Assembly: GCA_024278275.1 (NCBI GenBank)
Contig: JAJRTN010000039.1
Span: 21,030-85,029 of the forward strand
Reading direction: 5' to 3'
Length of the DNA: 64,000 bases
Source: Candidatus Hydrogenedentota bacterium
GTDB lineage: Bacteria > Hydrogenedentota > Hydrogenedentia > Hydrogenedentales > JAJRTN01
The translations under genes were made by a program, and so were the position numbers. Under the pieces are notes generated by a model. The model made no database searches. It saw nothing but the letters and a program-made list of their open reading frames with translations, and was not told the DNA's origin. Shown here in pieces: positions 1,010 through 24,140 of this stretch (positions are counted from its first letter, which is position 1; each line of letters begins with the position of its first letter).

Positions 1010-1912
1010 CTAGCGGTAGAACCGCATCCAGCTCTGTCCTTTGTCCCAATTGTTCACATCATCGCCGCCCCCCATGAGAATGGGGTCCTGCGCGTCATAA
1101 AAAAGCTCGCGGTCGCTGCCCACGCCGGGCTGGATCCAGGGTATCTGGGTTGCCGCGCCGCGCTGGTCTCCGGAACTGATGCTCGAGAAGTCCACGATGG
1201 CCTGGCCGGACTGCAAATTCTCGCCGTAGGAGTAGACATAGGCGGTTAACTTGGTCGTGGCCGGGTAGCCAATCTCAACGGTTTCGCCAATTTCATCGTC
1301 TTCCACCTGGAGGATCAGGCCGTCATCGGGATCCGGCTTGCTGCCCGGCAGATTGTCCACGGCCCGCTGGTAAACGCGGAAAGGCACCGGCGAGTTCACC
1401 ACGTTCCCGAAACGCCTTGGCCGGGGCAGGGGACCGGGCCAGATCTGGTAAAGCTTTTCACCCCACGGGTCGTTTGCCAGGTCAAGATAGCCGGTACCGA
1501 GATCCTTCACCACATCCTTCCTCAGAAAATGGGAATAGGCGACGCCCAGTTCGGAATCAACCCGCGTCGAATCCAGGGCACTCCGCCCTTCGCGCAACAG
1601 GGCGTAGAAGGTGCGCGTGTAGATCCGCTGCGTGGCCGACAACTGGGCGGCGGTCAGGGCGCCCCCCCCGTAACCGATGAAGCTCCGTATGTTGGCGTCG
1701 TTGAGCAGATGCTTGAGGCTGCTGCGCCCCGAATCGGCCAGCATGGTGGTAAGGGCCAGGTCGATGCCCTGGATATCCGCCAGCGCCGCGGTTGCTTTGC
1801 CGCGGCGGAAATAGCTGGCCGCCTTGGGCACGGCAATAGCCGCCAGGATCGAGATGATCCCGATCACCACCAGCAGTTCGACCAGTGTGAAGCCTCGCCT
1901 TTGAGCGAACAT
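1010..1912 (-). CDS. pilin-like protein with prepilin-type N-terminal domain
   Basis: Internal ATG at 1912 preceded by GGGAG gives MFAQRRG/FTLVELLVVIGIISILAAIAVP (E at +5). The track ORF 1010..2092 is an N-terminally over-extended version. Confidence 0.8.
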   Translation of the reverse strand: MFAQRRGFTLVELLVVIGIISILAAIAVPKAASYFRRGKATAALADIQGIDLALTTMLADSGRSSLKHLLNDANIRSFIGYGGGALTAAQLSATQRIYTRTFYALLREGRSALDSTRVDSELGVAYSHFLRKDVVKDLGTGYLDLANDPWGEKLYQIWPGPLPRPRRFGNVVNSPVPFRVYQRAVDNLPGSKPDPDDGLILQVEDDEIGETVEIGYPATTKLTAYVYSYGENLQSGQAIVDFSSISSGDQRGAATQIPWIQPGVGSDRELFYDAQDPILMGGGDDVNNWDKGQSWMRFYR

Positions 1913-2015
1913 ATTCTTTTCTCCCTCGTTCCCGTGCCGGCGTCCCGGCCGGCGGTACCGCACGAAAGACGCGCCGTCCGTGTGCGAACTTCGGCGGCGC
2001 GCCTGCGCAAACTGC

Positions 2016-3251: not shown

Positions 3252-3265
3252 GCCGGATTCCTCGC

Positions 3266-5020
3266 TTAGTCTTCGAACTTGTCGGTGTGAATCAACACTT
3301 CCTCGGCGCTGGTAATGCCTTGCACCGCCTTGATAAAGCCTTCCTCGCGGAGGGTGCGCATGTTCTGTTTGGTCCGCGCATAACGCCGTATGTCAAAGGC
3401 CATGGCGCGATCCAGGATCATGTCGTTCACGGTCTCGTCCGCAATGAGCAACTCGTAGAGTCCCGTGCGTCCCATATAGCCCACGTAGTCGCAGGCAGGA
3501 CAACCCTTGGGCCTGAAGAACTGCAAATTCGGATCCGCCCGCCACGAATCGGGCAATCCCAGCAGTTCCATCTCCTCCTCGTCGGGCCGGTAGGCCTGCC
3601 GACAGTGCCGGCAGAGCACGCGGACCAGCCGCTGGGCCAGCACGGCCTCAAGCGACGCGGTGATGAGGAAGGGTTCCACGTCCATGTCCAACAGGCGGGT
3701 AATGGTCTCGGGCGCGCTGTTGGTGTGGAGCGTGCTCAGCACCAGGTGCCCCGTAAGCGATGCCTCCACCGCGATATTGGCGGTCTCCAGGTCGCGAATC
3801 TCACCGACCATCACGATATCGGGGTCCTGGCGCAGGATGGAGCGAAGGCAGGCGGCGAAGGTCAGGCCAATCTCCTCATGCACCTGGCACTGGATAAGGC
3901 GGTCAATCTGCAACTCCACCGGGTCCTCGGTGGTGATGATCTTCACATCAACCTGGTTGAGCACGTTAAGGCAGGCGTACAGGGTGGTGGTCTTGCCGGA
4001 ACCCGTGGGCCCCGTGACCAGCATGACGCCATTGGGTTTATGGATGACGTTGTCGATCTTTTTCAGCACGTCGGGGCTGAAACCCAGAACGTTCAGGTCG
4101 ATCTTGACCGCGGTTCGGTCAAGAATACGCATCACCACCATCTCGCCGTAAAGCGTGGGCAGCGTGGCGACGCGGATATCAATGAGGCTGTCGCCCACCT
4201 TCAGTTCGATACGCGCGTCCTGGGGAAGGCGGCGCTCGCTGATGTCCATGTTACAGATAACCTTGATGCGGGACACCAGGGCGATGGCCATGCTCTTGGC
4301 CGGACTCACCAGCTCGTGCAGTACACCGTCCACGCGCAGCCGAATACGGAAGGTATCCTCGTACACCTCGAAATGAATATCGGACGCGCGCTTCTGCACG
4401 GCTTCCAGGAACACCAGGTTGACGATCTTGATGACCTCGGGCTGCTGGGAGAGTTCGACCAGGTTGTCAATATCACCGACGATCTCCTGCTGGCCCAACT
4501 CTTCGAGGGTCAGCTCCGCGGTACCCACGAGTTCTTCCAAGCTGTCCAGCATTTCGGAAACGGAGCTGGACTCGGTGGTGTAGTTGGCCTTGTGGGCCGC
4601 GCTGATATCCTCCTGGTTGCTCACCGCGCCCCGCACTTCCATGCCCGTGATCTGGGACAAATCGTCGAGGGTGTGCACATTCAGCGGATCGGCCATGGCC
4701 ACGACCAGCACGCCGTCGGTGATGCGAATCGGCAAAACCGTATAGAACTTGGCCACATCCTTCGATATCTTCTGAAGCACTTCCTCGGGAATCTTGAGCT
4801 TGGCCACATCAACCCGTTCCATACCGGACTGGATGCCGAGGGCTTCAATGATGTTCTGCTCTTTGCAGTAGCCCATGCTGACCAACACGCGCCCGAGCAT
4901 GTCGCCCGTCAGGCGCTGGCGCTGAACGGCCTCGTCAAGTTGGAGCGGTGTAATAACGCCCTGCTCGATAAGAATATCGCCCAACTGCTTTTCGCGGGAA
5001 TCTTCCGGTGCTACCGCCAT
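3266..5020 (-). CDS. GspE/PilB-family secretion ATPase (N-terminal MshEN-like domain plus AAA core)
   Basis: 584 aa. Walker A GPTGSGKTTTLYA and a C-terminal tetracysteine (CRHC...CPAC). N-terminus has QLGDILIEQGVITPLQLDEAVQRQ matching the MshEN-type motif. SD GAAGGAG. Confidence 0.92.
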   Translation of the reverse strand: MAVAPEDSREKQLGDILIEQGVITPLQLDEAVQRQRLTGDMLGRVLVSMGYCKEQNIIEALGIQSGMERVDVAKLKIPEEVLQKISKDVAKFYTVLPIRITDGVLVVAMADPLNVHTLDDLSQITGMEVRGAVSNQEDISAAHKANYTTESSSVSEMLDSLEELVGTAELTLEELGQQEIVGDIDNLVELSQQPEVIKIVNLVFLEAVQKRASDIHFEVYEDTFRIRLRVDGVLHELVSPAKSMAIALVSRIKVICNMDISERRLPQDARIELKVGDSLIDIRVATLPTLYGEMVVMRILDRTAVKIDLNVLGFSPDVLKKIDNVIHKPNGVMLVTGPTGSGKTTTLYACLNVLNQVDVKIITTEDPVELQIDRLIQCQVHEEIGLTFAACLRSILRQDPDIVMVGEIRDLETANIAVEASLTGHLVLSTLHTNSAPETITRLLDMDVEPFLITASLEAVLAQRLVRVLCRHCRQAYRPDEEEMELLGLPDSWRADPNLQFFRPKGCPACDYVGYMGRTGLYELLIADETVNDMILDRAMAFDIRRYARTKQNMRTLREEGFIKAVQGITSAEEVLIHTDKFED

Positions 5021-5046
5021 GATGCAGTTTGCTCCTTCACGCCGCC

Positions 5047-6144
5047 CTAACCGGCCGCGGGTTTGGCTCCATCACCCCCCTGAATCGCTTTGCAGGTCGC
5101 CGTGAATTCCTCGGCGTGCTGCGCTCGGATAAGCAATTCCTCAAAATCACAAATGCCACGTTTGTAAAGCGCAAAAAGGTGCTCATCCAGAAGGTTCATG
5201 CCGAACTTATGCCCGGTCTGGATGGCCGACGTAATTCGATAGGACTTGTTTTCACGAATGAGATTCTGAATGGCCGGCGTGGTGATCATGATCTCGAAGG
5301 CCGCCACCCGGCCGTAACCGCCTTTGCGCGGCACCAGGGTCTGGGAAATAACCGATTTGAGGTTGCCGGCAAGCTGCGTGCGAATCTGTTCCTGGGCATT
5401 GTTCGGAAAAGCGTCGATGATACGGTCCACGGTGCGCACCGCACCCGTGGTGTGCAAGGTTCCAAAAACCAGGTGACCGGTCTCCGCCGCCGTAATGGCC
5501 GCCTCGATGGTCTCCAGGTCGCGCATTTCACCCACGAGAATCACGTCGGGGTCCATGCGCAACGCACGGCGCAGGGCCTCCGAGAAGGTGGGCACGTCAA
5601 CGCCCACCTCGCGCTGGGTGACAATACTGTTCTTGTGGTTGTGGAAATACTCGATGGGGTCTTCCACCGTGATGATGTGATGACCACGGTTCTGATTGAT
5701 CCAGTCGATCATCGTGGCCAAGGAGGTGGACTTACCGGAACCCGTCGGCCCCGTCACGAGAATCAGGCCGCGGGGCTGATCAATCACTTCCTTGATAATC
5801 GGCGGCAAACCGATTTCCTCGAAGGTGAGAATCTTTCGGGGAATCAGGCGCAGCACAATACCCACGTGCCCGCGCTGCTTGAATATGGACACGCGGAACC
5901 GGGCGACGTCCTCGAAAGCGAAGCCAAAGTCGCTGCCGCCCACCTCCTGCAATTCCTGCTGGTTGTCCACCGACGCAATGCTCTTCATAAGGCTTTCGGT
6001 ATCTTCCGATGACAGGGGATTGTCACCGAAATACTGAAGCTTGCCGTGAACCCGCCCCACGGGGGGATTGTCCACGCCAATATGCAAATCGGACCCATCG
6101 CGGTCGATGAGCATCCGCAGCAAACTCACCATTTCATAGGCCAT
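5047..6144 (-). CDS. pilT: twitching motility / pilus retraction ATPase PilT
   Basis: 365 aa, [19 protein letters not shown]. PilT-length with no N-terminal GspE domain. SD AGGAGAG. Confidence 0.92.
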
Positions 6145-6156
6145 GAAACGTCTCTC

Positions 6157-8025
6157 CTATGCCGTTACGGCGGCTTCCGCTTTCGGCGTGTCATTGCGGT
6201 GCAACGGTTCGTCCACGCGGGTGCGCTTGTTAACCTCTTCCACCGTGGTAATACTCTTGAGCGCCTTCTGCCAGGCATCCTCCCGCATGGTGGTCATGCC
6301 ATCGAGACGCGCCTGGCGCCGAATGGCCACGGCGGACTGGCCCGCCATCAGCATCTGGCGAATGGCGTCGGTGGTTTGCAGCAATTCATAGGCACCCAGC
6401 CGGCCCAGGTAGCCGGTGTTGTGACAATTGTCGCAGCCGACCCCGTGGTAGAGTTTCACCTGATCCAAATCCACCGGGAAACCCAAACGTTCGATCTGCA
6501 CGGGATCGGGCTCACACACCTCTTTGCACCAGTTGCAAATGGTTCGCATCAGGCGCTGCGCCAAAATGGCCCGCACACCGGACGCCACCAGGAAGGGCTT
6601 AATGCCGATATCGATCAAACGGGTGAACGAACTGGCCGTGTCATTGGTGTGCAGCGTGGAGAACACGAGGTGACCGGTGAGGGCCGCCTTGATCGCGATC
6701 TCCGCGGTCTCAATATCTCGAATCTCACCCACCATCACGATGTCCGGGTCCTGGCGAAACATGGCGCGCAAGGCACGCCCGAAATCCCAGCCGATCTCGT
6801 GATTGATTTGCACCTGGTTGATACCGCTGAGCTGGTACTCGACCGGGTCCTCCACCGTGATGAGCTTGGTATCGGGTTTGTTCAGCGTGTGGAGGGACGC
6901 ATAGAGCGTGGTCGTCTTGCCCGAACCCGTCGGCCCCGTCACCAGCACCACGCCCGTGGCGTTGGTAAGAAGCTTCTCCCAATCACTTTGATCCTGCTCG
7001 GACATGCCCAACTGCCCCAAGCCCAAAAGCAGACCGCTCTTGTCCAGGATACGCATGACCACGCTTTCACCATAGGAGGAAGGCAGCGCGCTCACGCGAA
7101 GGTCAACCACTTTACCACTCAGATTCATCTTGATGCGGCCGTCCTGGGGAACGCGCCGTTCCGAAATGTCCATGCCCGACATCAGCTTGAGACGGGAAAT
7201 GATGGAGGCCTGGGCGCGTTTGGGCGGTGGCGGCATAAGCTGCATTACCCCGTCAATGCGGTACCGTATCTTGATGTCCATCTTCCCGGGTTCCACGTGA
7301 ATATCACTGGCCCGCAGCCGGAACGCTTCGAGGATCGTCTGGTTAATGTACTGCACCACCGGGCTGTTCGCGTCGTCCTCGTCCCCCTCCGTCATAACGC
7401 CACCGCCCGCACCGTCCTCCAGGTCCATCGCATCCATGCTGATGCTGCTCATGCTGATGTCACTGGCGCTCATGCTGCCCATACTCAATGAACTGTCGCC
7501 CAGACTCAAATTCGACATGCTGCTCAGGGAGCTTACGCTGCTGGCGCTGCTCGCCGAGGAAAGCATGGTCTCCACCGTGTTGTCCTGCAGGTTGTAGTAA
7601 TTGCCCAGCGCCGCGCGAATGTCTTCGGGGGTGGACAACACAAACTCCACGGGCCGCCCGAGAAGACGGCTCAGGTTGTCCTGGGTGTTGACATTGGTGG
7701 GATCCGCCGTGGCAACAACCAGGGTATCGCCACGCTCCTCCACCGGAATCACCCGGTAAAGCGTGGCAATACTGCCGTCCACCATGCCCCGAACCCGCTC
7801 AGGGATATCCCGTTCCGAGAGCTTCACCACCGGGATAGCTAACTGATCAGCCAACCCCTCGGTGATATGGCTCTTGCTGATGTGTCCCAGACGCACCAGG
7901 ATTTCACCGAGTTTGCGATGCCCCATGGTCGTCTGTTGCCGATGTACGGCTTCATCCAATTGCTGTTGGCTGATGATGCCGCGCTCGACCAGCCGACGCC
8001 CGAAAAGAGAGTACACGCCTTGCAT
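6157..8025 (-). CDS. pilB: PilB-type assembly ATPase with a Ser-rich low-complexity insertion between the N-terminal and ATPase domains
   Basis: 622 aa. N-terminus LFGRRLVERGIISQQQLDEAVHRQ matches the MshEN-type motif. Walker A GPTGSGKTTTLYA and C-terminal CNWC...CDNC. SD GAGAGGTG. Confidence 0.92.
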   Translation of the reverse strand: MQGVYSLFGRRLVERGIISQQQLDEAVHRQQTTMGHRKLGEILVRLGHISKSHITEGLADQLAIPVVKLSERDIPERVRGMVDGSIATLYRVIPVEERGDTLVVATADPTNVNTQDNLSRLLGRPVEFVLSTPEDIRAALGNYYNLQDNTVETMLSSASSASSVSSLSSMSNLSLGDSSLSMGSMSASDISMSSISMDAMDLEDGAGGGVMTEGDEDDANSPVVQYINQTILEAFRLRASDIHVEPGKMDIKIRYRIDGVMQLMPPPPKRAQASIISRLKLMSGMDISERRVPQDGRIKMNLSGKVVDLRVSALPSSYGESVVMRILDKSGLLLGLGQLGMSEQDQSDWEKLLTNATGVVLVTGPTGSGKTTTLYASLHTLNKPDTKLITVEDPVEYQLSGINQVQINHEIGWDFGRALRAMFRQDPDIVMVGEIRDIETAEIAIKAALTGHLVFSTLHTNDTASSFTRLIDIGIKPFLVASGVRAILAQRLMRTICNWCKEVCEPDPVQIERLGFPVDLDQVKLYHGVGCDNCHNTGYLGRLGAYELLQTTDAIRQMLMAGQSAVAIRRQARLDGMTTMREDAWQKALKSITTVEEVNKRTRVDEPLHRNDTPKAEAAVTA

Positions 8026-12639: not shown

Positions 12640-14031
12640 CTACTGTGCCTCCAGGTCGTATTTCTGGAGCCGGTAGCGAAGGGATCGTGGTGTGAGGCCA
12701 AGCATGGCGGCGGCCTTTTTCTGCGAATAGCGGCTGGCCTCCAGGGCCTGTCGGATCAGGCGTGTTTCCGTTTCTTCGATGAGTGCTTCAAGATCGATAC
12801 CTTCGGGAGGCAACGAGACGACCGCGGGTTTTTCGACGGGCACGAAATCCTGAATATTCTGGGGCAGATCGCTCATTTTAATCACGTTGTCAGAGCACAG
12901 GGCCACGGCGCGCTCCATGATGTTGCACAACTCGCGCACGTTTCCCGGCCAGGTGTAGCGTTGCAGCGCGGCCATGGCGTCGGCGGCAATATCCATGTCG
13001 CCACGGCCCATGTTGTCGGCATGCCTTCGGATAAAATGCCGCGCCAGCAGGGGAATGTCGTCGGCGCGGTCGCGGAGGGGCGGCACATGGATCGGGATGA
13101 CATTCAACCGGTAATATAAATCATTGCGAAACGTGCCCTCTTCGGCCATTTTCGCCAGGTTGCGATTGGTAGCCGAGATGATTCGCACATCCACTTTGAT
13201 CTCCGATGTGCCCCCCACGGGCGTCACCGTGCTGTTGTCCAACACACGCAGCAGCTTCACCTGGAGCATGAGGGGCATCTCGCCGATTTCATCGAGGAAA
13301 ACGGTTCCGCCGCTGGCCACGACAAAGAGCCCCTCCTTGTCTTCAATGGCCCCGGTAAAGGCCCCGCGCTTGTGTCCAAACAATTCGCTTTCGAGAAGGT
13401 TTTCCGGAATCCCGCCGCAGTTGATGGCGACAAAAGGCTTGTCTACACGGTCACTCAGGTTATGCAGCGCCCGTGCCACCAGTTCTTTGCCCGCCCCGCT
13501 GTCACCGTGAATGGCAACCGTGCTCGGCAGCTTCGCCACGCGGCGAATCATGGAGAGCACTTCCTGAAAGGCGCTGCTCTGGCCGATCATATTTTCGATC
13601 TTGGCGCTGAGCTGCTGTTGCTTGCGCATGGCCACGTTTTCGCGGACCAGGTTGCGTTGGGCGATAGCGCGTTCGACCCGAAGCCGGATCTCGTCGTTAC
13701 TCTTGAAGGGCTTCTGGATGTAGTCCGTGGCGCCCCGCTGCATGGCCTCGACGGCCGTTTCCACCGAGCAGTGGGCGGTCATCATGATGGAGGGAGTCGT
13801 GGGAGCGTGCTCTTTCAGCCAGCTCAGCAGGGTGAGCCCCGCCTCGCGCTCGCTTCCCATGCGAAGGTCGGTCAACACCACGTCGAACTGCTTCTTCTGC
13901 AAAAGCGAAACGGCTTCGTCCACGCCGGAAACCGATTCCACCACGTGGCCGGCGTTCTCCAGCACGATTTCGAGCACTTCTCGCATACCCAATTCGTCAT
14001 CGACGACGAGCACCTGATATTGCACCGCCAT
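12640..14031 (-). CDS. pilR: sigma-54-dependent two-component response regulator (REC, AAA+ sigma-54 interaction, HTH), PilR-like
   Basis: Start MAVQYQVLVVDDE at 14031. HGDSGAGKELVARALH motif and C-terminal Fis-type HTH. Adjacent to the sensor kinase and pilB/pilT. The track ORF is over-extended to 14184. Confidence 0.85.
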   Translation of the reverse strand: MAVQYQVLVVDDELGMREVLEIVLENAGHVVESVSGVDEAVSLLQKKQFDVVLTDLRMGSEREAGLTLLSWLKEHAPTTPSIMMTAHCSVETAVEAMQRGATDYIQKPFKSNDEIRLRVERAIAQRNLVRENVAMRKQQQLSAKIENMIGQSSAFQEVLSMIRRVAKLPSTVAIHGDSGAGKELVARALHNLSDRVDKPFVAINCGGIPENLLESELFGHKRGAFTGAIEDKEGLFVVASGGTVFLDEIGEMPLMLQVKLLRVLDNSTVTPVGGTSEIKVDVRIISATNRNLAKMAEEGTFRNDLYYRLNVIPIHVPPLRDRADDIPLLARHFIRRHADNMGRGDMDIAADAMAALQRYTWPGNVRELCNIMERAVALCSDNVIKMSDLPQNIQDFVPVEKPAVVSLPPEGIDLEALIEETETRLIRQALEASRYSQKKAAAMLGLTPRSLRYRLQKYDLEAQ

Positions 14032-14051
14032 GTCCCGGTTGCTCCCTGGTT

Positions 14052-15707
14052 CTATGTGTCCGGCGTCTCCGTATCGTCTCCGCCACCCACCACCCGGGGA
14101 AGGCGAACCCGCATCGAAGTGCCGCCTTCCGGCCGTGCGGCCACCTGCATGGTCCCATCGTGGGAAGTCACAATGCGGAGACAAATGGCCAGCCCCATAC
14201 CGACGCCTCGCTCTTTCTCGGTGAAAAAAGGCTCAAAAATGCGTGACACCTTGTCCGGCGGGATTCCCGGCCCCTCATCATCGAAGCGGACTTCGGCCGG
14301 ACCGGCGTCCGTGAGCAGCGAGATGGTCAAGGTGCCCTGCTCGTGCATCGCCTCAATGGCGTTCTGACCGAGGTTAAGAAAAACCTGACGCAACTGCATG
14401 CGGTCCCCCAGCACCTCGACCACGGTCTCCGGGGTCCGCGTGGTAATACGCAGATCCCGGGCATGGGCAAACTGCCGTTCAAGATGGGCGCGCACGTTGT
14501 CCACCATGGCACTGAGATTCACGATGGTGTGGCGGCGGCTGGGATCCCGCGCGAAATCCAGGAATCCCGTCACGATATCATTCAAATGGTCGGACTCACG
14601 AATGGCGATATTGGCCAAGCGCTCCACCATGGCCGGCTTCTCCGTACCCCGGCGCAATTCTTCCATCGCCCCGCGAATAGCGGCCACCGGATTGCGTATC
14701 TCATGGGCCAGGCCGGCCGTCAGCTCGCCGATTACCGCCATCCGGTCCTGCTGTTGGAGGAGCTGACGCATGTGGGCCATCTCCGTCAAGTCGGTAAACG
14801 AGGCGATGAGGCCCGTAACAGCGCCGCGTGAATCACGCAAAGGGTTGGTGGTGAGTCCCAGCAATTTGGTTTCTTGTTCACCCACGCGGGCGTGAAACTC
14901 ATAACTGGTGAAATCCTTCTGGCTGCGCAGGGCGGTCACCACGGGATTCTCGGCGCCGCTTTCCGGCATTATGATGCCTTCCACGTGACGTCCCGCCACG
15001 TTCCCTTCATCGACGCCCAGAATATGGCAGGCCGCCCGGTTCATGGCGATCACCAGTCCCTTGGTGTCGCAGATCAGGAATCCACTGCTCAGGTTGTCGA
15101 GGATCTCCCGCTGAAACTGCTTCATCCCGCTGACGCGCTGATTCCAATAGCCGCTTATGAAGGCCGTAAAGAAGAATCCAATCACGAGAATGAGAAAGTG
15201 ATACCAGTGGGTCAGGGGGTCGTCGCTCCGCGGCGTGGATACGGCGAAATGGAAAAACATGAACAACGAGGAGAGCGTGGCGAAAACAAAGCCCTGGCTG
15301 AGTCCCATGAGGACACCCGCCTCCAGGATGACCGTCACCAGTAGGAAGGTAAAGAAACTCTTTTCCGCGCCACTAAAGCTGATGGTAATGGCCACCACGC
15401 CAAAATCCACCATCATCTGCATCCAGGTGAGGGCGGGGTTGACTCCCGGCCGCCCCCGCAGCGACACCAGGTACCAGATGCCGCTGGCGCAGGCCGCCAG
15501 GTAAACCCCCGTGAGAAGGAACAGATAACGCTCCTCCGCGGCCACCAGGTGGGCGCCCGTGGCCACCACGAGCAGCAGACCCAGGCGGGCCGCGCCCACG
15601 AACCAGAGCCACGATACGGGGCCGTCGTAGGAAGGCGCCAGGAAGCCGAACGTTGCGGGAACCTTAAACGCCCCGCCCGATGATTGTAACGACGTCTTCC
15701 GGGTCAC
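14052..15707 (-). CDS. pilS: membrane sensor histidine kinase (multi-TM, PAS, HisKA, HATPase_c), PilS-like
   Basis: 551 aa, about 6 N-terminal TM helices, H-box GLAHEIRNP, G-box near the C-terminus. GTG start overlaps the upstream pilT stop (GTGA). Confidence 0.85.
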   Translation of the reverse strand: MTRKTSLQSSGGAFKVPATFGFLAPSYDGPVSWLWFVGAARLGLLLVVATGAHLVAAEERYLFLLTGVYLAACASGIWYLVSLRGRPGVNPALTWMQMMVDFGVVAITISFSGAEKSFFTFLLVTVILEAGVLMGLSQGFVFATLSSLFMFFHFAVSTPRSDDPLTHWYHFLILVIGFFFTAFISGYWNQRVSGMKQFQREILDNLSSGFLICDTKGLVIAMNRAACHILGVDEGNVAGRHVEGIIMPESGAENPVVTALRSQKDFTSYEFHARVGEQETKLLGLTTNPLRDSRGAVTGLIASFTDLTEMAHMRQLLQQQDRMAVIGELTAGLAHEIRNPVAAIRGAMEELRRGTEKPAMVERLANIAIRESDHLNDIVTGFLDFARDPSRRHTIVNLSAMVDNVRAHLERQFAHARDLRITTRTPETVVEVLGDRMQLRQVFLNLGQNAIEAMHEQGTLTISLLTDAGPAEVRFDDEGPGIPPDKVSRIFEPFFTEKERGVGMGLAICLRIVTSHDGTMQVAARPEGGTSMRVRLPRVVGGGDDTETPDT

Positions 15708-16780
15708 GCCGTTCCTTTATCGATCAGGTGTTGCAGTCCTTCGGGGTCGGAGCTGCGTTTAAAAGCCATGTCTGTGGTGATAATACCGCGCCGCATAAGG
15801 CGGTACAGCGATTGGTTCATGGTACACATTCCCTCGCCCTTTCCGATCTCGATCATGGAAGGAATCTGCTCCAGTTTTTCGGCGCGAATAAGAGAGCGGA
15901 TGGCGGGATTGGCGAGCATGACCTCCATGGCCAGCGCGCGGCCCATGCCGTCGGCACGGGGAATGAGCTGTTGCACCACGACGGCTTCCAGTACGAAAGA
16001 AAGCTGCGTCCGTACCTGATCTTGCTGCGAGGCGGGAAACACGTCGATAATACGGTTCATGGTCTGAAGGGCGTCGTTCGTGTGGAGTGTCGCAAAAGCG
16101 AGGTGGCCGGTTTCCGCCACCGTAAGCGCCGCCTGGATGGTTTCCGTATCCCGCATTTCACCGATGAGTATAACATCCGGATCCTGTCGCAGCACCCGCT
16201 TCAGGGCGTCGGAAAAGGAATTCGTGTCCGCGTGTATTTCTCGCTGATTTACCACCGCGCGGTTATGCCGATGAAGGTACTCGATGGGGTCCTCGATGGT
16301 GATAATGTGCACGTTGCGCTCGCGGTTGATCTTGTCCACGATGGCGGCCAGGGTGGTGGATTTGCCGCTGCCCGTCGGCCCGCACACCAGGACCAGTCCA
16401 ACGGGGTAGTCGGCGAATTCCGAGATCACGCGGGGCAGCCCCAGTTGCTCGAAAGAGAGGATTTCGAAAGGAATCGCCCGGAAAGCCGCCACCACCGAGC
16501 CGCGGTCACGGTAGACATTGAGGCGAAAACGGCTCAGTCCCTCGACACCGAAAGACATGTCGCATTCCCGTGTCTCCTCGAATTCGGAGATCTGCTCCTC
16601 ATTCATGACACTGTAAATGATTTCCTGCGTTTGATCCGCATTGAGCCGCTCGTACCCGGTCAGGGCCTCCAGGCCGCCGTGGATACGAATCATGGGCGGC
16701 CCCCCCACCACGATATGAAGGTCGCTCGCCCCTTCCTGGATCATCTTGGTCAGCAGTTCTTTTATCGTTGGCGTGGCCAT
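15704..16780 (-). CDS. pilT: twitching motility / retraction ATPase PilT (second copy)
   Basis: 358 aa, [21 protein letters not shown]. Confidence 0.92.
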   Translation of the reverse strand: MATPTIKELLTKMIQEGASDLHIVVGGPPMIRIHGGLEALTGYERLNADQTQEIIYSVMNEEQISEFEETRECDMSFGVEGLSRFRLNVYRDRGSVVAAFRAIPFEILSFEQLGLPRVISEFADYPVGLVLVCGPTGSGKSTTLAAIVDKINRERNVHIITIEDPIEYLHRHNRAVVNQREIHADTNSFSDALKRVLRQDPDVILIGEMRDTETIQAALTVAETGHLAFATLHTNDALQTMNRIIDVFPASQQDQVRTQLSFVLEAVVVQQLIPRADGMGRALAMEVMLANPAIRSLIRAEKLEQIPSMIEIGKGEGMCTMNQSLYRLMRRGIITTDMAFKRSSDPEGLQHLIDKGTA

Positions 16781-16918: not shown

Positions 16919-18643
16919 TCAGTCCTCCATCGTATGCTCCAACACCTGTTCGATGGAGGACAAACCCTTGGCCGCCTTGGCCAGTGCGTTTTGGCGAAGC
17001 GACTTCATCCCGCAACGAATGGCCGCCTCCTTAATCTCGTAGCCCGTGGCGTTCTTGAGCACCAGGGGGTGAATCTCGGGCCAGTTCAGCAACACTTCCG
17101 TGGCGGCGACCCGCCCGCGATAACCCGTTTCCTTGCATTTGCCGCATCCACGCCCCCGCACGAAGGTGGGTTTCTCGATGTAATCGAACGGCTTGAACTG
17201 AATCCGGTCCAGCACGTCCTGGGGAACCATAATGGGTTCCTTACACTCGGCGCACACCCGCTTAAGCAAACGCTGGGCCGCCGCCAGGGCAACGGACGAT
17301 TGTACCAAAAAGGGTTCGATCCCCATGTCGATGAGACGGGGAAACACGCCCGGCGCGTCGTTGGTGTGCAGCGTGCTGAGCACGAGGTGTCCCGTCAGCG
17401 CCGCCTTCACGGCCACGTCCGCCGTTTCACCGTCTCGAATCTCGCCGACCATCACCACATCCGGGTCCTGGCGCAGAATCTGGCGAAGCGCCTGGGCAAA
17501 GGTAAAACCAATGGCTGACTGCACCTGGACCTGGTTCACCCCGAACAATTCATACTCGATGGGATCTTCGACCGTTACCAGATTGCTCTCAACCCGGTTC
17601 AATTCATGGAGTGCACTATAGAGCGTGGTCGTTTTACCGCTACCCGTCGGCCCCGTGAGCAGTATCATTCCGTGGGGCATTTTCAGGGCCTCGGCAAAGG
17701 CTTCCATGGGCTGAGGCTCAAATCCCAGTTTCTCCAGGTCCAGGGTCAGATTGCCTTGGTCAAGCACGCGGAGCACGATCTTCTCCCCGAACTTGGTGGG
17801 CAGAAAACCCACGCGAAAATCGATTTCACGGCCCTTGTAGCGAATACGGAACCGCCCGTCCTGGGGAAGGCGGTGTTCGTCGATACGGCAGCCCGCCAGG
17901 ATCTTGAAGCGGGCGATAATGTTGTGTTGAAGCGATTTGGGCGGGGCCTTCGCTTCTTCAAGCGTACCGTCAACGCGGTAACGGATCCGGATGAGTTTTT
18001 CAAAGGGCTCGAAATGGATGTCGCTCGCATCGCGCTCCAGGGCATTGAAGAGGATGAGCCGCGCCAGCTTTTTTACCGGCTCGTCCTCCGAACCGGCTTC
18101 CAGTTTTGACACGTCCTCAATGTCATCCTGCTCTTTCAATTCCTCCATCTTTTCCGCGTCACTATCCTGGCCGACAAGCGAATCGTACAGGTTTTCGGCC
18201 GCGTCGCCACCATAGTTTCGCTCAATGGCATCGGCCAATTCCGAGGCCACGGCGACCACCGGCTCGATGTCATAGCTGATCAGCATGCGCAGGTCGTCCA
18301 GCGCCATGATGTTCAGCGGGTCGGCCATGGCGAGGGTGAGCACGTCGCCCGTAACGGACACGGGCAGCATGAGGTACTGGCGCGCCAGGGTTTCGGGCAC
18401 TTCGGCCAAGACCTCTTTGGGAATCGAATAGTGGGCAACGCGGATATGGGGTATGCCGAGTTGCTCACTGAGGGTAATCACCAGATCTTCTTCCGAAAGA
18501 TAGCCCCTCTCCACGAGAAGACTGGGCAGACTCTGGCCCGAGCTGCGGTGAAGAGCGATGCACTCGCGCAACTGTTCCTCGGTAACAAGCTTCTGTTCGA
18601 GAAGCATGTCGGGAAGTCGTTTCCTGGGAATCCTGGTGGCCAA
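16919..18643 (-). CDS. pilB: PilB-type type IV pilus assembly ATPase (second cluster)
   Basis: 574 aa, N-terminal GspE_N-like domain, Walker A GPTGSGKTTTLYS, C-terminal CAEC...CGKC. Confidence 0.92.
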   Translation of the reverse strand: MATRIPRKRLPDMLLEQKLVTEEQLRECIALHRSSGQSLPSLLVERGYLSEEDLVITLSEQLGIPHIRVAHYSIPKEVLAEVPETLARQYLMLPVSVTGDVLTLAMADPLNIMALDDLRMLISYDIEPVVAVASELADAIERNYGGDAAENLYDSLVGQDSDAEKMEELKEQDDIEDVSKLEAGSEDEPVKKLARLILFNALERDASDIHFEPFEKLIRIRYRVDGTLEEAKAPPKSLQHNIIARFKILAGCRIDEHRLPQDGRFRIRYKGREIDFRVGFLPTKFGEKIVLRVLDQGNLTLDLEKLGFEPQPMEAFAEALKMPHGMILLTGPTGSGKTTTLYSALHELNRVESNLVTVEDPIEYELFGVNQVQVQSAIGFTFAQALRQILRQDPDVVMVGEIRDGETADVAVKAALTGHLVLSTLHTNDAPGVFPRLIDMGIEPFLVQSSVALAAAQRLLKRVCAECKEPIMVPQDVLDRIQFKPFDYIEKPTFVRGRGCGKCKETGYRGRVAATEVLLNWPEIHPLVLKNATGYEIKEAAIRCGMKSLRQNALAKAAKGLSSIEQVLEHTMED

Positions 18644-18727: not shown

Positions 18728-21127
18728 TCACGCCGCCTGCTCCGATCCCAAATGGCTTAGAATCTCCGTTGCCATTTCCACATTCATATCCTGTCCCACC
18801 AATTCCGAAAAGGCCAGGATCTTCCGCAGCGATCCGGTCATTTTACGAATATCATCCGTGACGCGCATGGCGATAAGCGACAGGATCTCTTCCGGCACCG
18901 TGACTTTGGCCGCCTTGGCGCAGTGACGGAGAATCTCCATCCGTGTCTCCCATTCGGGCGCTTTCAACTCCGCCACAATGCCGCTGGAAAAGCGGGAAAT
19001 AAGGCGCTGCTCCAATAGGCCCAGGCGGTCGGGCGCTTTGTCACTCGCAATGATAATCTGCCGATTCTGCTGATACAACACGTTAAAAATGTGAAAGAAC
19101 TCTTCTTGCGCCTCCACCCGTCCCCCCATGAACTGAATATCATCCAGGATAAGCACATCCCAGTGACAATAGTTTTCCCGGAAGGCGTCGACGGCCTCGT
19201 CTTTGAGGGCTTCCGCCAGGCGCCGGGAAAAATGACTGGCCGACACATAGCCCACACGCCGGCTCGGGTCGTTGGCCAGGATGGCGTTGCCCGTGGCGCT
19301 GATAAGATGGGTCTTGCCGATACCCACGTGTCCGTAAAGGAAAAACGGGTTGTATTCCCCCCCCGGACGCGCCGCCACGGCCTGCGCCAGTTTGAAGGTG
19401 AAGCCATTGGTCTTGCCGGGAAAGAATCGGTCCAGGGTAAGACTTTCCAGGGGGTGCTCGGACTCCAGCGCCTCCCGCACCCGTTCGTCGGCTTCGTCCA
19501 TCTCGGGATTGCGGCTATCCGGCCCGGTCACCCCGCCAAAAGGCGCCACCGACGCGTGGCGTTCGAGACGGCTTTTACCGAGGTCGCGGCGATTCTGATC
19601 CGCCACGGTCGCCGTTTCAACCAGGTGGGATGTCTGCTGAACCGCCTGCAAGGTGGCCTCCGCAATTTCCGCCAACCGCTTCCCCTGCTCTTCCTGCGTC
19701 TGCCGCGCGGCTTCAAAGGCCTCGCGAACACTCGCATACATGGCTTCAGACAGCGCTTCCTTGGTTAAACCGCTTGCTTCCTTTTTCCCCATGGCGGCCC
19801 GAAGCTGAACCATCATGGTGGCCATGGCTTCCTGCATGGCGCCGGTTACGCTCTCCCGGATGGCCTCCCCCAATGCCTCGGGAGAAGGCAAAGCGGCGGA
19901 AGGCTTGTTCTCACGGGCACGTAACTGGACCATCATGACCGCCATGGCTTCCTGCAACGCCCCCGCGATACCCTCTTGGATGATCGTTGCCATGGCCTGC
20001 CCGTCCGGGGCCGGCGCCGCCGGCGCGGGCTGCACCGCGGTACGCAATTCGTCCGCAAGCAACGATACCGATTCCTGTAAGGCATCACGCATCATGTTTG
20101 CCAAGGCACCCATGTCAAGCGTGGGAGAAACCGCCGGGGCCGCTGGCGCAAGCGACGCCACGGTCTCCTGCATGGAATCGCGCAAAACAGTCGCCAAAGC
20201 ATCCACATCCAGCGTCGGCGGGGCCGCCGGCGCCGGCTCCACGGCGGGTCGTGCTTCCAGGGCCTTCACAAGATCGCCCATGGCCTCCCGCAAGCCGTCG
20301 CGCATCACCTCACCCAGTTCCGCCGCCGAAAAGGCCGGCAACGACGAGGGTGCCGCCGACGGCGTGGCCAAGGGAGGCGGTGGCGCCGGAGGGAGCGAAG
20401 GCGCGGCCTCCATGACCGGCGCTTCTTTCGGGGGGGCTTCTTCGGAGGGCTTGTTCGTGGAGGGCGCGGCCTTGGCAGGGGGCGGCTTGTCCGCCTTGGG
20501 CGGATCGGGTTGCCTGGGGGAAAGGGCGCTCAGGCCCAGGGAGTCCGTGGTCATGGCCGGTGCGCCGCCGGAAGAGGCCGACTCGGGAAAAACCCGATGA
20601 ACCACCGTGTCGAAGTGGTGCCAATTACATAGGATCGGCTTGATCCGAAGATCGGGACACGACTGGCGAACCGCTTCCAGAGCATCGATATCCAAGGGGT
20701 CCACCATGGCAATGGTAAGGATCCGGCCTAACTTGTCGATTGGGATGAGGCCATACTTAAGGCACGTCTCCCTGGGAACCAGGGCCACCACCTCCGGGCT
20801 GATATCGTAATCCAGCAGGCTGAGGTGGGGAATCTTGCACTGCTTCACCACGCAGGAGGTGATATCCTCTTGCGTTACATGCCCCAAACCGACAAGAATC
20901 TGCCCAAGAAATCCCCCGGAGCGCTCCTGCTCCGCAATCCCCTCGTCCAACTGCTCCCGCGTTATCAGATTCTGCTCTAACAGTAACTCACCCAAACGCT
21001 TAGGCGGAGCGGGCGCGGTGCGTTTGGGGGCTCTTTTCACACTCTTGCCACGACTGAACACGACAATAAACCCTGCCTGATCTGGATGCGACCCAATAAC
21101 CCGGAAGACTGACAGGTATTGTAGCAC
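18728..21127 (-). CDS. fusion protein: PilB/MshE-type N-terminal (MshEN-like) domain, Pro/Ala-rich repeat linker, DnaA domain-III AAA+ ATPase (no DnaA domain I or IV)
   Basis: 799 aa as tracked. The 21127 start is a GTG; the true start may be an internal GTG near 21040-21061. N-terminal region RLGELLLEQNLITREQLDEGIAEQ...DPLDIDALEAVRQ resembles GspE N-domains. C-terminal 230 aa are collinear with DnaA domain III (NPFFLYGHVGIGKTHL, VLILDDIQF, RLISRFSSG). Confidence 0.8.
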   Translation of the reverse strand: MLQYLSVFRVIGSHPDQAGFIVVFSRGKSVKRAPKRTAPAPPKRLGELLLEQNLITREQLDEGIAEQERSGGFLGQILVGLGHVTQEDITSCVVKQCKIPHLSLLDYDISPEVVALVPRETCLKYGLIPIDKLGRILTIAMVDPLDIDALEAVRQSCPDLRIKPILCNWHHFDTVVHRVFPESASSGGAPAMTTDSLGLSALSPRQPDPPKADKPPPAKAAPSTNKPSEEAPPKEAPVMEAAPSLPPAPPPPLATPSAAPSSLPAFSAAELGEVMRDGLREAMGDLVKALEARPAVEPAPAAPPTLDVDALATVLRDSMQETVASLAPAAPAVSPTLDMGALANMMRDALQESVSLLADELRTAVQPAPAAPAPDGQAMATIIQEGIAGALQEAMAVMMVQLRARENKPSAALPSPEALGEAIRESVTGAMQEAMATMMVQLRAAMGKKEASGLTKEALSEAMYASVREAFEAARQTQEEQGKRLAEIAEATLQAVQQTSHLVETATVADQNRRDLGKSRLERHASVAPFGGVTGPDSRNPEMDEADERVREALESEHPLESLTLDRFFPGKTNGFTFKLAQAVAARPGGEYNPFFLYGHVGIGKTHLISATGNAILANDPSRRVGYVSASHFSRRLAEALKDEAVDAFRENYCHWDVLILDDIQFMGGRVEAQEEFFHIFNVLYQQNRQIIIASDKAPDRLGLLEQRLISRFSSGIVAELKAPEWETRMEILRHCAKAAKVTVPEEILSLIAMRVTDDIRKMTGSLRKILAFSELVGQDMNVEMATEILSHLGSEQAA

Positions 21128-21551
21128 TGGAATGACACACCGTCAAACAAAAACACTTTACAAACCAAGCGCATATCTCGCACTTTTATAATACGCTTAC
21201 CGGGCGGCCTGTAAGCCTTGGGCAGCAAGGCGCATGTTGTCACTTGACCGGGCGTGCTTCTCCCCCAGAAATGGAATCTCCTGACGGATGCAGGTATTCG
21301 ACACCTTTGGCGCACGGGAGCACGTCCCTGCCGAATTCCCGTAATAGGGTTGCTCATTATCGAACGTGGGGGGAAACCAATCCCCGTACCCGGGCGGACG
21401 GTGAAACAGCAGCGGCGCGGAAGTGGCAAAGGGTTTGTAAACAATTTCCTCAAGATTCCTTACCAACCAACCGTGTCCTTGGCCTGGCCACCGGGAAATA
21501 GGGTAGGATACGCACCTTGCCAGACCCCAACCCGGAAGCATTAGGTACGCC

Positions 21552-24140
21552 ATGCCCAAGGCCCTTGGTGAAAACATACAACAGCGCTTGACCCCCGATG
21601 CCGCCCGCGTGATCCAGGAGGCCATCGAGGGGGCGGGGGGCAACGAGGTTTTTTGCGCGGGCGCTTTGGACGGCGCGGGGCGGGTCTACGCGGCACGGGT
21701 GTTGGCGCGGGGAAACCGGGGCGCGGTAACGGCCCTCTTCGAGGGGCTGGACGTGCGGGACGTGGTCATTCACAACCATCCTTCGGGCGACCTGGTTCCC
21801 AGCGATGCCGATCTGGAACTGGCCGCCATGTACAGCACCCACGGCCATGGCGTGTACATCGTGGACAACGATGTCACACGGGTCTATGTCGTGGTGGACC
21901 CTTTCCTGCCCAAAGACGCGGTGCGTCTCGATCCGCGTGAGTTGGATCGTATCCTGTCGCCCGCGGGACCGCTCGCCCGCCAGATGCCCGGCTTCGAGGT
22001 GCGCCCCCAGCAGGTCCGCATGATGGACGCCATCGCCAGGTCCTTCAACGAGGACGGCATTGCCGTGGTGGAAGCCCCCACGGGCGTGGGCAAGACCTTT
22101 GCCTACCTCTTGCCCGCCGCACTGTGGGCCATCCGGAACAAGGAGCGCGTGGTCATCTCGACGCGTACCATTAACTTGCAGGAACAAATCGTCCACAAGG
22201 ACGTGCCCATGGTTCAGCGCTGCCTGGAAGAACCCTTCACTGCCTGCCTGGTGAAGGGCCGGAGCAACTATCTTTGCCTGCGCAAGCTGGAACGCGCGCT
22301 GGGAGAAGCCACCCTCTTCGAGGACGACGAGACCGAGGGACAAATGCGCGCCATCGTGGAGTGGGCCGAAACCACGAAGGACGGCAGCCTTTCCGACCTG
22401 CCTTTCGTGCCCGGCCGCAACCTGTGGGAGAAGGTCTGTTCCGAAGCCGACAGTTGCAACAAGAGCCGCTGCCCGAGGCAGAAGGAATGTTTTGTCGGCC
22501 AGGCCCGCCGGGAGGTGGCCAAGGCCGATCTCATCGTGGCCAATCACCACATGCTCTTCTCCGACATCGCCATCAAGCAGGAAACGGGGAGCTTCTCATC
22601 CCTCGCCGTACTGCCCGCCTATCACCGGGTGATCTTCGACGAAGCCCACAGCATCGAGGATTCCGCGACGGAATACTTCGGGGCAGACGCCACCCAGATC
22701 GGGGCGAGAGCCACCTTCGGGCGATTCCTGCGCATGGAGCGTGGAAAAGAGCGCGGCCTGCTGCCCGTGCTTCGTTTGCGCCTGGTCAAGGAGTGTCCCC
22801 AGCTTTCGGTGAGGGAATTCGAGGTTATCCAGGATCACCTGGAAAAGCAGGTCATGCCCGCCCTCAAGAATGCCCGCGAAACGGTCCAGGATTTTTTCGT
22901 GGCCCTGCGTGAGCTGGCCGCCCGCAAGTGCGGACAGGTGGGACGGGACATCAAGTGGCGCCTGACCCCGGAGATCCTGATTGAAGCCGACCTGCGCGCC
23001 TTCCACAACCAGCATACCCTGGTCGCGGTGGAATGTATTCGCCAATTGGTGGGCCACTGCAAGAACCTTGAACGAAAGCTGAAGGCCATCAAGCCCGCCG
23101 CCGGGGAAGAGAACGTGGCCATCGACGGCGAGATCGCCATGTTCAGCGCCTACACGCGACGCCTGGAGCGTCTGGGCAACGTCCTCGCCGAAAGCACCAG
23201 CGAAGCGCTTCAGGAAAACACGGTGCGCTGGGTGGAGATCAACGCTCACCGCGAGGACGTCGTCCGCATCGCGCGCTGCCCCCTCCACGTGGGCAAGCCG
23301 CTCGCCGAATGGGTCTACGAAAACCTCACGAGCGTGGTCATGACCTCCGCCACGCTCACGGTGAAGAAAGAGTTCACCTATCTCTTCAACCGCCTGGGCC
23401 TGGACCGGGTGGACCCCGGGCGCGTAACGGCCCTGGCCCTGGACTCGCCCTTCGACTTCCAGCGGCAGGCCATGCTCTGTATCGCCACCGACCTGCCCGA
23501 ACCCGGCGCCAATGGCTTTCTTGACGAGAGCCTTGAATGTATGCGGCGCGCCCTTCGGGCGACCAAGGGGCATGCCTTCATCCTCTTCACGTCCTTTTAC
23601 GCCCTCACCCACGCCTATCGCGCCCTCGAAAAGGAACTGCGGACAGCGGGCATCACGCCCCTGCGCCAGGGCGAGGCCAACCGAACCGTCTTGCTCGACC
23701 GTTTCCGCAGCGATACGGCGAGCGTCCTCTTCGCCACGGACAGTTTCTGGGAGGGCGTGGACGTTGCCGGGGATTCATTGCAGTGTGTTATACTGCCTAA
23801 ACTTCCATTTCGGGTGCCCACCGAGCCTATTCTGCAGGCCCGGGCGGAGGCCATTGAGCGGGACGGCGGCAATGCGTTCACCGAGTATTCCGTGCCGCAG
23901 GCGGTCATCAAGTTCCGCCAGGGATTCGGACGCCTCATCCGGCGCGGGACCGACCGGGGTGTCATTCTCGTGCTCGACAGGCGAATTGTTACCAAGTACT
24001 ATGGCAGGATGTTCCTTGAATCCCTGCCCCCCCTGTGCATCGAGAGAGGGATACGGACCAAGATCCTCCCATCACTGGACAGATTCTTCAACCCGACCAC
24101 GGGCCCGGCCCACGTCCGGGCAGACGAGGAGACCCCATGA
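21552..24140 (+). CDS. DinG/Rad3-family Fe-S DNA helicase with N-terminal RadC-like JAB (MPN) domain
   Basis: 862 aa. N-terminus has HNHPSGDLVPSDAD (RadC/JAMM motif). Helicase motifs APTGVGKT and DEAH (VIFDEAHSIED). Four Cys (CLRKL, CSEADSC, CPRQKEC) consistent with a 4Fe-4S cluster. Confidence 0.85.
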   Translation: MPKALGENIQQRLTPDAARVIQEAIEGAGGNEVFCAGALDGAGRVYAARVLARGNRGAVTALFEGLDVRDVVIHNHPSGDLVPSDADLELAAMYSTHGHGVYIVDNDVTRVYVVVDPFLPKDAVRLDPRELDRILSPAGPLARQMPGFEVRPQQVRMMDAIARSFNEDGIAVVEAPTGVGKTFAYLLPAALWAIRNKERVVISTRTINLQEQIVHKDVPMVQRCLEEPFTACLVKGRSNYLCLRKLERALGEATLFEDDETEGQMRAIVEWAETTKDGSLSDLPFVPGRNLWEKVCSEADSCNKSRCPRQKECFVGQARREVAKADLIVANHHMLFSDIAIKQETGSFSSLAVLPAYHRVIFDEAHSIEDSATEYFGADATQIGARATFGRFLRMERGKERGLLPVLRLRLVKECPQLSVREFEVIQDHLEKQVMPALKNARETVQDFFVALRELAARKCGQVGRDIKWRLTPEILIEADLRAFHNQHTLVAVECIRQLVGHCKNLERKLKAIKPAAGEENVAIDGEIAMFSAYTRRLERLGNVLAESTSEALQENTVRWVEINAHREDVVRIARCPLHVGKPLAEWVYENLTSVVMTSATLTVKKEFTYLFNRLGLDRVDPGRVTALALDSPFDFQRQAMLCIATDLPEPGANGFLDESLECMRRALRATKGHAFILFTSFYALTHAYRALEKELRTAGITPLRQGEANRTVLLDRFRSDTASVLFATDSFWEGVDVAGDSLQCVILPKLPFRVPTEPILQARAEAIERDGGNAFTEYSVPQAVIKFRQGFGRLIRRGTDRGVILVLDRRIVTKYYGRMFLESLPPLCIERGIRTKILPSLDRFFNPTTGPAHVRADEETP

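Follow-up and report, generated by a model that had tools for sequence, protein, structure and literature searches.

A conserved fusion of an MshEN domain with the DnaA domain III ATPase core encoded directly upstream of pilB in Candidatus Hydrogenedentota: a candidate c-di-GMP-responsive factor of the type IV pilus motor

What does the ATPase core of DnaA, the initiator of replication, do at the head of a type IV pilus operon? This question is raised by a gene in a 64,000-nucleotide stretch of contig JAJRTN010000039.1 (positions 21,030 to 85,029 of the forward strand, assembly GCA_024278275.1; here called the window) from a Candidatus Hydrogenedentota bacterium. A sequence-only reading of this DNA, made without database searches, had described one open reading frame (ORF) that joins an N-terminal domain of secretion ATPases to DnaA domain III and heads a pilB-pilT-pilS-pilR operon. 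Our comparative analysis indicates that this fusion is a conserved family trait. The role which we favour, at a probability of about 0.5 and on the basis of sequence, predicted structure and analogy, is that of a cytoplasmic accessory protein for the type IVa pilus motor that would respond to c-di-GMP (cyclic dimeric guanosine monophosphate) and be switched by ATP. Both domains are well known and the probable role fits known regulatory logic; a DnaA core preserved nearly unaltered in a pilus operon is surprising.

Both ends of the fusion protein were recognised by hidden Markov model (HMM) searches. The Pfam model MshEN (PF05157) matched the N-terminus with E=3e-16 (59.5 bits against a cut-off of 23.1), and Bac_DnaA (PF00308) matched the C-terminus with E=3e-53. 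The same Pfam scan of the fusion revealed neither DnaA_N (PF11638) nor Bac_DnaA_C (PF08299), T2SSE (PF00437) or any other specific domain, and EAL, GGDEF and PilZ domains were likewise not found; T2SSE is present in the adjacent PilB and PilT, not in the fusion. An AlphaFold2 model of the full-length protein, built on a 69-sequence alignment, contains two confident globular domains at amino acids (aa) 20-160 and 540-770, with a predicted local distance difference test score (pLDDT) of ~96 and 90-98, respectively, and between them a disordered Pro/Ala stretch that leads into six helices, the last of 68 residues. Foldseek matched the N-domain to MshE in complex with c-di-GMP (5htl, template modelling (TM) score 0.76) and also to GSPII-B of PilF, and the N-domain is 37% identical to the N1D domain of the adjacent PilB. 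HMM searches and structure prediction of both ends, which had been proposed as checks of the sequence-only reading, passed the thresholds and gave confident models, and the resemblance of the N-terminus to the N-domain of GspE, PilB and MshE was borne out by PF05157 and by the NCBIfam model NF053729, both above their curated cut-offs. The gene and the parts of its product are arranged as follows:

18728..21061, minus strand: MshEN-DnaA(III) fusion gene, 777 aa, GTG start (the mechanical ORF reaches 21127, 799 aa)
20582..21004, minus strand: N-terminal MshEN / GSPII (N1D-type) domain, aa 20-160 (PF05157, pLDDT ~96)
20840..20998, minus strand: putative 53-residue c-di-GMP-binding motif pair, with motif I RLGELLLEQNLITREQLDEGIAEQ, spacer ERSGG and motif II FLGQILVGLGHVTQEDITSCVVKQ
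20327..20581, minus strand: disordered Pro/Ala-rich linker segment, aa 161-245 (pLDDT <50), highly variable and gapped across the family
19559..20326, minus strand: helical repeat region, aa 246-501, with six amphipathic motif copies, ending in the 68-residue helix
19442..19558, minus strand: conserved pre-AAA+ segment RHASVxPFG ... ALESExPLE, aa 502-540 (family conservation profile and consensus)
18731..19441, minus strand: DnaA domain III AAA+ module including the lid, aa 541-777 (PF00308, Foldseek, pLDDT 90-98)
19310-19333, minus strand: Walker A
19130-19156, minus strand: Walker B
19031-19057, minus strand: sensor I
18989-19009, minus strand: box VII Arg finger
18827-18856, minus strand: sensor II

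The linker had been described as Pro/Ala-rich with five to six helical repeats, and the disordered stretch with its six helices and repeats agrees with this. The repeat, L-G/A-x-h-h-R/Q-D/E-x-h-x-x-A/T-h, starts at aa 249, 289, 320, 357, 397 and 437; six copies are present here, 0-6 in relatives and about none in shuffled sequences. Within the linker, moderate conservation is confined to the two final repeats together with the long helix, and the helical repeats are absent from the short-linker and minimal relatives described below. The helical-repeat linker would be an accessory tether, dispensable in the short relatives. Walker A is separated from the C-terminus by a constant ~201 aa throughout the family.

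By its sequence and predicted fold, the C-terminal module is a DnaA paralogue and far closer to DnaA than to Hda. It aligned to domain III of Bacillus subtilis DnaA (8bv3/8btg) with 205 bits and ~42% identity, collinear over 229 residues, and the alignment stops exactly at the domain III/IV junction. Foldseek matched it to DnaA domain III of B. subtilis and Thermotoga maritima with a TM score of 0.91 and a root-mean-square deviation (rmsd) of 1.6-1.8 Å, whereas Hda proteins reached 30-45 bits (solved structures) and an rmsd of ~5 Å. The protein scored below the cut-offs of both curated families, TIGR00362 for the DnaA equivalog (287.3 bits, cut-off 343.9, with profile positions 46-341 of 437 matched) and TIGR03420 for Hda (89.4 bits, cut-off 194.8). 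The earlier description as Hda-like therefore holds for the extent of the module, but not for its sequence and fold. All the motifs that had been read from the C-terminus, Walker A, Walker B, box VII and sensor II, were found; the claim that DnaA domains I and IV are missing also stood, as Pfam finds neither and the protein ends at the III/IV junction. Domain IV was not encoded in the window or in the family loci (~1.2 Mb of loci).

Judged by sequence, the ATP-binding, hydrolysis and Arg-finger residues of the module are intact: K583 and T584 (Walker A), D640 and D641 (Walker B), D674 (sensor I), R686 and R690 (box VII) and R739 (sensor II) are invariant in the family. The fusion thus shares with DnaA the complete AAA+ and lid module with Walker A/B, sensor I/II and the box VII Arg finger. 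Unlike DnaA, it lacks domain I, domain IV and the DnaA-box-binding part, has MshEN as its N-terminus and is encoded in a pilus operon, not at dnaA-dnaN. It also departs from DnaA at three residues whose roles have been described (PMC10325909). The equivalent of Escherichia coli V211 in the single-stranded DNA (ssDNA) H-motif (I190 in B. subtilis) is K in 33, A in 32, S in 20, T in 7, G in 6, Q in 4 and N in 3, and never V/I/L, among 113 members. The equivalent of E. coli R245 is an invariant Glu, with the neighbouring basic residue kept as R/K, and a Cys is conserved in place of the AID residue R227. With Hda and HdaA the fusion has in common that it is a relative of DnaA of the same extent, domain III only, which retains the Arg finger. 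It differs from them by its large N-terminal putative sensor domain and its pilus gene context; moreover, a conserved Hda-type beta-clamp-binding motif (QL[SP]LPL type) was not found in the family consensus, which was searched by inspection only.

Is the fusion a real gene product or the result of two genes joined by a frameshift or an assembly error in the linker? The linker is of low complexity and GC-rich, which would favour such an artefact, but the N- and C-terminal domains lie in one uninterrupted frame in all 62 loci with both ends on the contig. These are independent assemblies, among them the long-read-style complete chromosomes OY782877.1 (5.1 Mb) and OW818658.1 (7.9 Mb). In addition, no DNA tandem repeat was found in the linker-coding region, and natural short-linker and linker-less versions exist. 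We therefore consider an artefact practically inconceivable; a frameshift or assembly join is ruled out by the cross-genome conservation, and the single ORF joining MshEN and DnaA domain III, as first proposed, is a conserved family trait. While the linker between the domains ranges from 51 to 755 aa across the 62 loci, the N-domain and the AAA+ module are near-invariant.

A word-indexed search returned 358 homologues, and the best 120 of these 358 all carry PF05157 and PF00308; every named homologue among these 120 belongs to Candidatus Hydrogenedentes/Hydrogenedentota. A scan with one genome per GTDB species gave a full-length match in 67 species-level genomes, most of them titled as Hydrogenedentota (Ca. 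Hydrogenedens terephthalaticus among these), below which scores drop sharply to AAA+-only matches, which are the canonical DnaAs of other phyla. The lineage of Planctomycetes, Verrucomicrobia and Chlamydiae (PVC) assumed earlier was wrong; the organism belongs to Candidatus Hydrogenedentota. The window also encodes a prepilin-type N_methyl protein with DUF1559 (SBP_bac_10) at 48033-49076 (minus strand). This family is usually linked with Planctomycetes, so the protein may account for the earlier PVC assignment. Several contigs with the Hydrogenedentota-type operon (L064, L074, L011, L016, L022 and others) bear record titles such as 'Bathyarchaeia archaeon', 'Poribacteria' or 'uncultured Nitrospirales/Nitrospiraceae'; these odd labels probably reflect mis-binning or placeholder taxonomy.

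The second line of evidence is the gene neighbourhood. The fusion gene heads a co-oriented series of pil genes, as the sequence-only reading had stated; gene order and strand were confirmed, and the distance to pilB is 84 bp instead of 85 bp. A terminator-like site was not found in this 84-bp gap. The downstream genes are:

16919..18643, minus strand: pilB, assembly ATPase with MshEN and T2SSE, 574 aa (TTG start, GGAG ribosome-binding site)
15704..16780, minus strand: pilT, retraction ATPase, 358 aa
14052..15707, minus strand: pilS-like histidine kinase (6TM_PilS, PAS, HisKA, HATPase_c)
12640..14031, minus strand: pilR-like sigma-54 response regulator, likely start ATG 14031

Across the family, in each of the 64 genomes whose contig continues beyond the fusion gene, pilB lies immediately downstream of it in the same orientation. 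This arrangement is retained in a Hydrogenedens-like group, where pilT, pilS and pilR are found elsewhere and the upstream genes differ. A short-linker relative (449 aa) heads the order fusion-pilB-pilT-pilS-pilR-pilC. More distant architectures were collected by an exhaustive representative search followed by Pfam scans. Among them are minimal MshEN-DnaA proteins of 398-411 aa, one cluster of which (P0247) is from candidate division WOR-3. Two of the variants are embedded in filament gene clusters: P0223 lies inside an msh-like cluster with AAA_22, TPR, MshE, T2SSF and PilT, and P0233 directly upstream of pilMN-pilO-AMIN-secretin. P0259 is next to pilT, and P0226 is 7.5 kb from pilB-pilC, near dprA and topA. 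Two adjacent genes for giant proteins (L093 1987-11747; 1991 aa and 1248 aa) each combine MshEN with two DnaA-III modules, with a pilT-like gene immediately after them. MshEN-DnaA(III) proteins thus repeatedly occur together with type IV pilus genes in different gene orders and lineages, and a functional link of the fusion to the pilus is, in our view, very likely.

The minimal ~400-aa MshEN-DnaA proteins outside Hydrogenedentota (L089 8001-9197, L091 2887-4104 and the P0247 cluster) have a near-absent linker and degenerate c-di-GMP motifs, and are still found within msh-like or pilMNOQ clusters. At the locus with dprA and topA (L090 2682-12334), the 550-aa variant adjoins a lytic transglycosylase gene, with topA, dprA, pilC and pilB within 7.5 kb; nowhere else is a competence context hinted at. 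We also detected a separate family of tandem DnaA-III proteins of 585-700 aa without MshEN and without a DNA-binding domain (P0201, P0205, P0209, P0211, P0215, P0217, P0219, P0277 and P0315; L092 8001-10094). One of them is annotated as 'AAA family ATPase' in Gemmatimonadota, and the gene at L092 lies downstream of two bactofilin genes, with no pilus genes nearby. In a rough neighbour-joining tree of the AAA+ modules, computed without support values, the Hydrogenedentota family groups with the short-linker forms, and a fusion event shared with the minimal forms is undecidable from it.

What could the N-domain sense? The 24-residue stretch that had been recognised as fitting the MshEN consensus is motif I, which is followed by ERSGG and a second motif. 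On the 53-residue c-di-GMP motif model NF053729 the fusion reaches 54.6 bits (cut-off 38). The pair has the 24+5+24 layout RLG...Q / ERSGG / FLG...Q with both position-3 glycines present, and the central Gly of motif I is replaced by Asn. The backbone amides of the position-3 glycines contact guanine O6/N7 (PMC11731258). c-di-GMP is bound neither by XpsE, whose several changes include G11V/G40L (PMC5013675), nor by PilF GSPII-A with its degenerate motif II (PMC11731258). Both glycines are kept in 80 of the 113 family proteins. At the level of genomes the fusion keeps both in 50 of 58 that could be scored, the partner PilB in none of 60. In the partner PilBs, G40 is always replaced by P/Q/A/V/S and never Gly, and most of them carry P or E at G11. 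An amide proton is lacking in proline. The PilB encoded in the window has the degenerate motifs RLP... and SLP... together with a Q32 to H change.

At the first position of both motifs, Arg or Lys is expected to stack on guanine. The fusion has Arg in motif I and Phe in motif II, where F occurs in 104 and Y in 8 of the 113 members. PilF GSPII-B, with Lys and Leu at the first motif positions, binds c-di-GMP at 6 nM (PMC11731258); by analogy, Phe or Tyr at the first position of motif II would be compatible with binding. Taken together, we predict from these residues that this fusion protein probably binds c-di-GMP. Its N-domain resembles the MshEN receptors Vibrio cholerae MshE, Thermus thermophilus PilF GSPII-B/C and the PilB proteins of Myxococcus xanthus and Clostridium perfringens in fold, in the 24+5+24 motif pair, in both position-3 glycines, the Leu/Ile/Val triads and the terminal Gln residues, and in its association with type IV pili. 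Unlike these receptors, its output is a DnaA-type AAA+ module instead of the PilT-class T2SSE, and the central Gly of motif I is Asn. In one sub-clade (L014, L049 on the 7.9 Mb chromosome OW818658.1, P0016, P0044, P0049 and relatives) the fusion reads RLV..., FLC... and PilB reads RLP..., SLP...; in these strains neither protein is predicted to bind c-di-GMP and the gene pair is still kept.

How might the two domains work together at the pilus? N1D/GSPII domains of type II secretion ATPases bind PilM homologues, and GSPII-C of PilF is needed for stimulation by PilMN (PMC6325625, PMC11656802). As an N1D paralogue, the N-domain of the fusion might dock on PilB or on the PilM/PilC platform, and its two-motif pocket would bind one c-di-GMP. 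In most members the fusion would thereby supply in trans the c-di-GMP input for a PilB with a decayed pocket, a proposal which we make because the fusion keeps the pocket residues that the adjacent PilB has lost. The DnaA-type AAA+ core could act as an ATP/ADP-dependent self-assembly switch, forming a head-to-tail oligomer, and the oligomer may set the valency or activity of the pilus motor complex. We infer c-di-GMP binding, the interaction with PilB or PilM, oligomerisation and the direction of regulation from sequence, predicted structure and gene context. The idea of a c-di-GMP-responsive pilus role, raised by the sequence-only reading, is well supported by synteny and motif analysis.

Two known systems offer analogies. 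Similar to the proposed sensing in trans, in the FimX-PilZ-PilB system of Xanthomonas and Pseudomonas a PilB which does not bind c-di-GMP receives the signal from a separate receptor (PMC8389850, PMC5595344, PMC11656802). The proteins are, however, unrelated, as the fusion is an N1D paralogue with an AAA+ ATPase, and its gene directly precedes pilB. NfrB and other MshEN fusions (with glycosyltransferase, REC, CheX or AAA_31/EpsG) likewise use MshEN as a portable c-di-GMP input with a non-secretion output. In contrast to these, the output of the fusion is an AAA+ module of the replication-initiator type, and the gene is tied to the pilus motor.

Several observations weigh against this role. The model NF053729 failed as a discriminator between the fusion and the partner PilB, as the partner PilBs score 42-53 bits and both proteins exceed the cut-off of 38, and a residue-level analysis was used; since the model passes both proteins, the loss of binding by PilB is argued from specific residues only. 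Roughly one family member in four carries T/V and C in place of the glycines and reaches 30 bits on this model, and all minimal ~400-aa relatives are devoid of the motif glycines, so that c-di-GMP sensing cannot be the function of the family as a whole. The geometry between the domains is undefined in the AlphaFold2 models, with a predicted TM score of 0.46 for the full-length protein and 0.48 for a minimal 405-aa relative, in which the inter-domain segment is disordered. Gene adjacency speaks for a functional link, not for its nature, and the near-orthologue similarity of the module to DnaA (40-45% to B. subtilis) is not accounted for by a pilus role. Moreover, we know of no genetic system for the phylum Hydrogenedentota.

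The same partners could be regulated with the opposite sign. As a decoy or competitive inhibitor, the N1D paralogue would block the site of the PilB N1D at PilM or the platform and hold pilus extension off, with its release governed by c-di-GMP and the ATP state and no sensing in trans. The synteny and N1D homology fit this equally, and the minimal relatives which lack the c-di-GMP pocket and still lie beside pilMN or within msh clusters point to c-di-GMP-independent docking. Nevertheless, inhibition of this kind leaves the complementary retention of the motifs in the fusion and their loss in PilB unexplained, and we regard it as unlikely. Slightly less likely still is a coupling of pilus and replication, in which the DnaA-III module would co-assemble with DnaA, cap it or stimulate ATP hydrolysis on it in the manner of Hda or YabA, so that the c-di-GMP level or pilus state gates replication initiation. 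Here the 40-45% identity to bona fide DnaA-III, with the Arg finger and the sensors intact, is what would be expected of a module that docks on a DnaA protomer, and a conceptual precedent comes from Caulobacter, in which pilin and pilus state act through c-di-GMP on cell-cycle initiation (PMC7196804). However, an Hda-type clamp motif was not found in the family consensus, the Hda model gave 89 bits instead of 194.8, and the structural match to Hda is poor (rmsd ~5 Å). The AID residue R227, which serves the DnaA-DnaA contact, is a conserved Cys; neither dnaA, dnaN nor an origin was seen nearby in ~75 loci, and in every lineage the synteny is with pilus genes. The replication or cell-cycle link which the sequence-only reading had offered as an alternative therefore found no positive support, with no clamp motif seen in the family consensus, the ssDNA H-motif lost and no dnaA, dnaN or origin as a neighbour. 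A more specific form, in which the module docks on canonical DnaA as a filament cap or Arg-finger donor and the pilus-tethered protein turns c-di-GMP or pilus activity into replication control, appears doubtful to us; if true, it would constitute a hard-wired link from surface sensing to replication.

Type IV pili also drive natural transformation, and DnaA-III filaments bind ssDNA; the structure 3r8f is among the fold matches, and one variant locus has dprA and topA near pilB-pilC. The DnaA-III module might accordingly bind incoming ssDNA at a competence pilus as a DNA-uptake factor. Against this, the hydrophobic H-motif residue is never V/I/L in the 113 members, the R245 equivalent is an invariant Glu, and dprA adjacency was seen once only, which makes DNA uptake the least probable of these functions. 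A regulatory function at the pilus motor, with the fusion as the c-di-GMP input for PilB in most members, is the reading which we retain.

A full-text literature search by the combined domain names returned no prior description of an MshEN-DnaA architecture; the single paper in which both words occur is unrelated. REC, HD-GYP, CheA, CheX, cyclase, kinase, glycosyltransferase and AAA_31 are named as partners in the paper on MshEN with its supplement, DnaA not among them, and neither DnaA nor AAA+ comes up in a review of PilB cofactors from 2024. The claim that the architecture is undescribed holds within the literature searched. In the databases, members of the family are labelled 'DnaA/Hda family protein', 'ATP-binding protein' or 'chromosomal replication initiator protein DnaA'. 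The last label is wrong, and such annotation could mislead origin prediction and genome annotation. If the proposed role is correct, the fusion would represent a new output class for MshEN c-di-GMP receptors and a new kind of cofactor for the motor that assembles type IV pili, in a phylum for which metagenomes are almost the only source. The DnaA ATPase core would here clearly have been recruited for a task other than replication initiation, and the tandem and giant forms suggest that the initiator module may be a more general ATP-switch building block than assumed. The complementary decay of the PilB c-di-GMP pocket provides a directly testable hypothesis.

Where does the gene begin, and from where is it transcribed? 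The 799-aa frame reported earlier is present as a mechanical ORF on the minus strand (18728..21127), but its nominal GTG start at 21127 is overlapped by a strong predicted promoter at 21146-21118. Because of this overlap we prefer GTG 21061, 22 codons 3' of the nominal start, as the most likely true start; the resulting 777-aa product is 100% identical to the NCBI-annotated protein (P0001). The ORF as such was thus confirmed, and its length probably has to be revised from 799 to 777 aa. The promoter is the following element:

21118..21146, minus strand: predicted sigma-70-type promoter TTGACG-17-(TG)TACAAT, 10/12 consensus matches plus an extended -10 TG

By its sequence and position it probably drives the fusion gene together with pilB-pilT-pilS-pilR. 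The sigma-54 (PilR-type) promoter pattern TGGCAC-N5-TTGC, allowing up to two mismatches, matched 79 times (78 expected), with no match upstream of the fusion gene, and was rejected as a candidate. Scans for tRNAs, Rfam families and tandem repeats gave nothing relevant. The mechanical pilR ORF (12640-14184, minus strand) starts at TTG 14184 and overlaps pilS by ~130 nt; ATG 14031 is the likelier start, since the receiver domain begins there.

A second type IV filament or type II secretion-like cluster is located at 103-8025 (minus strand) of the window:

6157-8025, minus strand: MshEN and T2SSE ATPase, 622 aa
5047-6144, minus strand: PilT-like ATPase
2016-3251, minus strand: T2SSF platform protein
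1010-2092, minus strand: N_methyl pseudopilin, with a probable further one at 103-1002

Unlike the PilB beside the fusion, the ATPase at 6157-8025 seems to have an intact c-di-GMP motif pair (LFG..G.., KLGEILVRLG..Q). On the other side of the fusion gene, and divergent from it, 21552-24140 (plus strand) encodes an 862-aa protein which couples a RadC-like JAB domain, a weak match of 26 bits at aa 17-98, to a DinG/XPD-type helicase (DEAD_2, Helicase_C_2).

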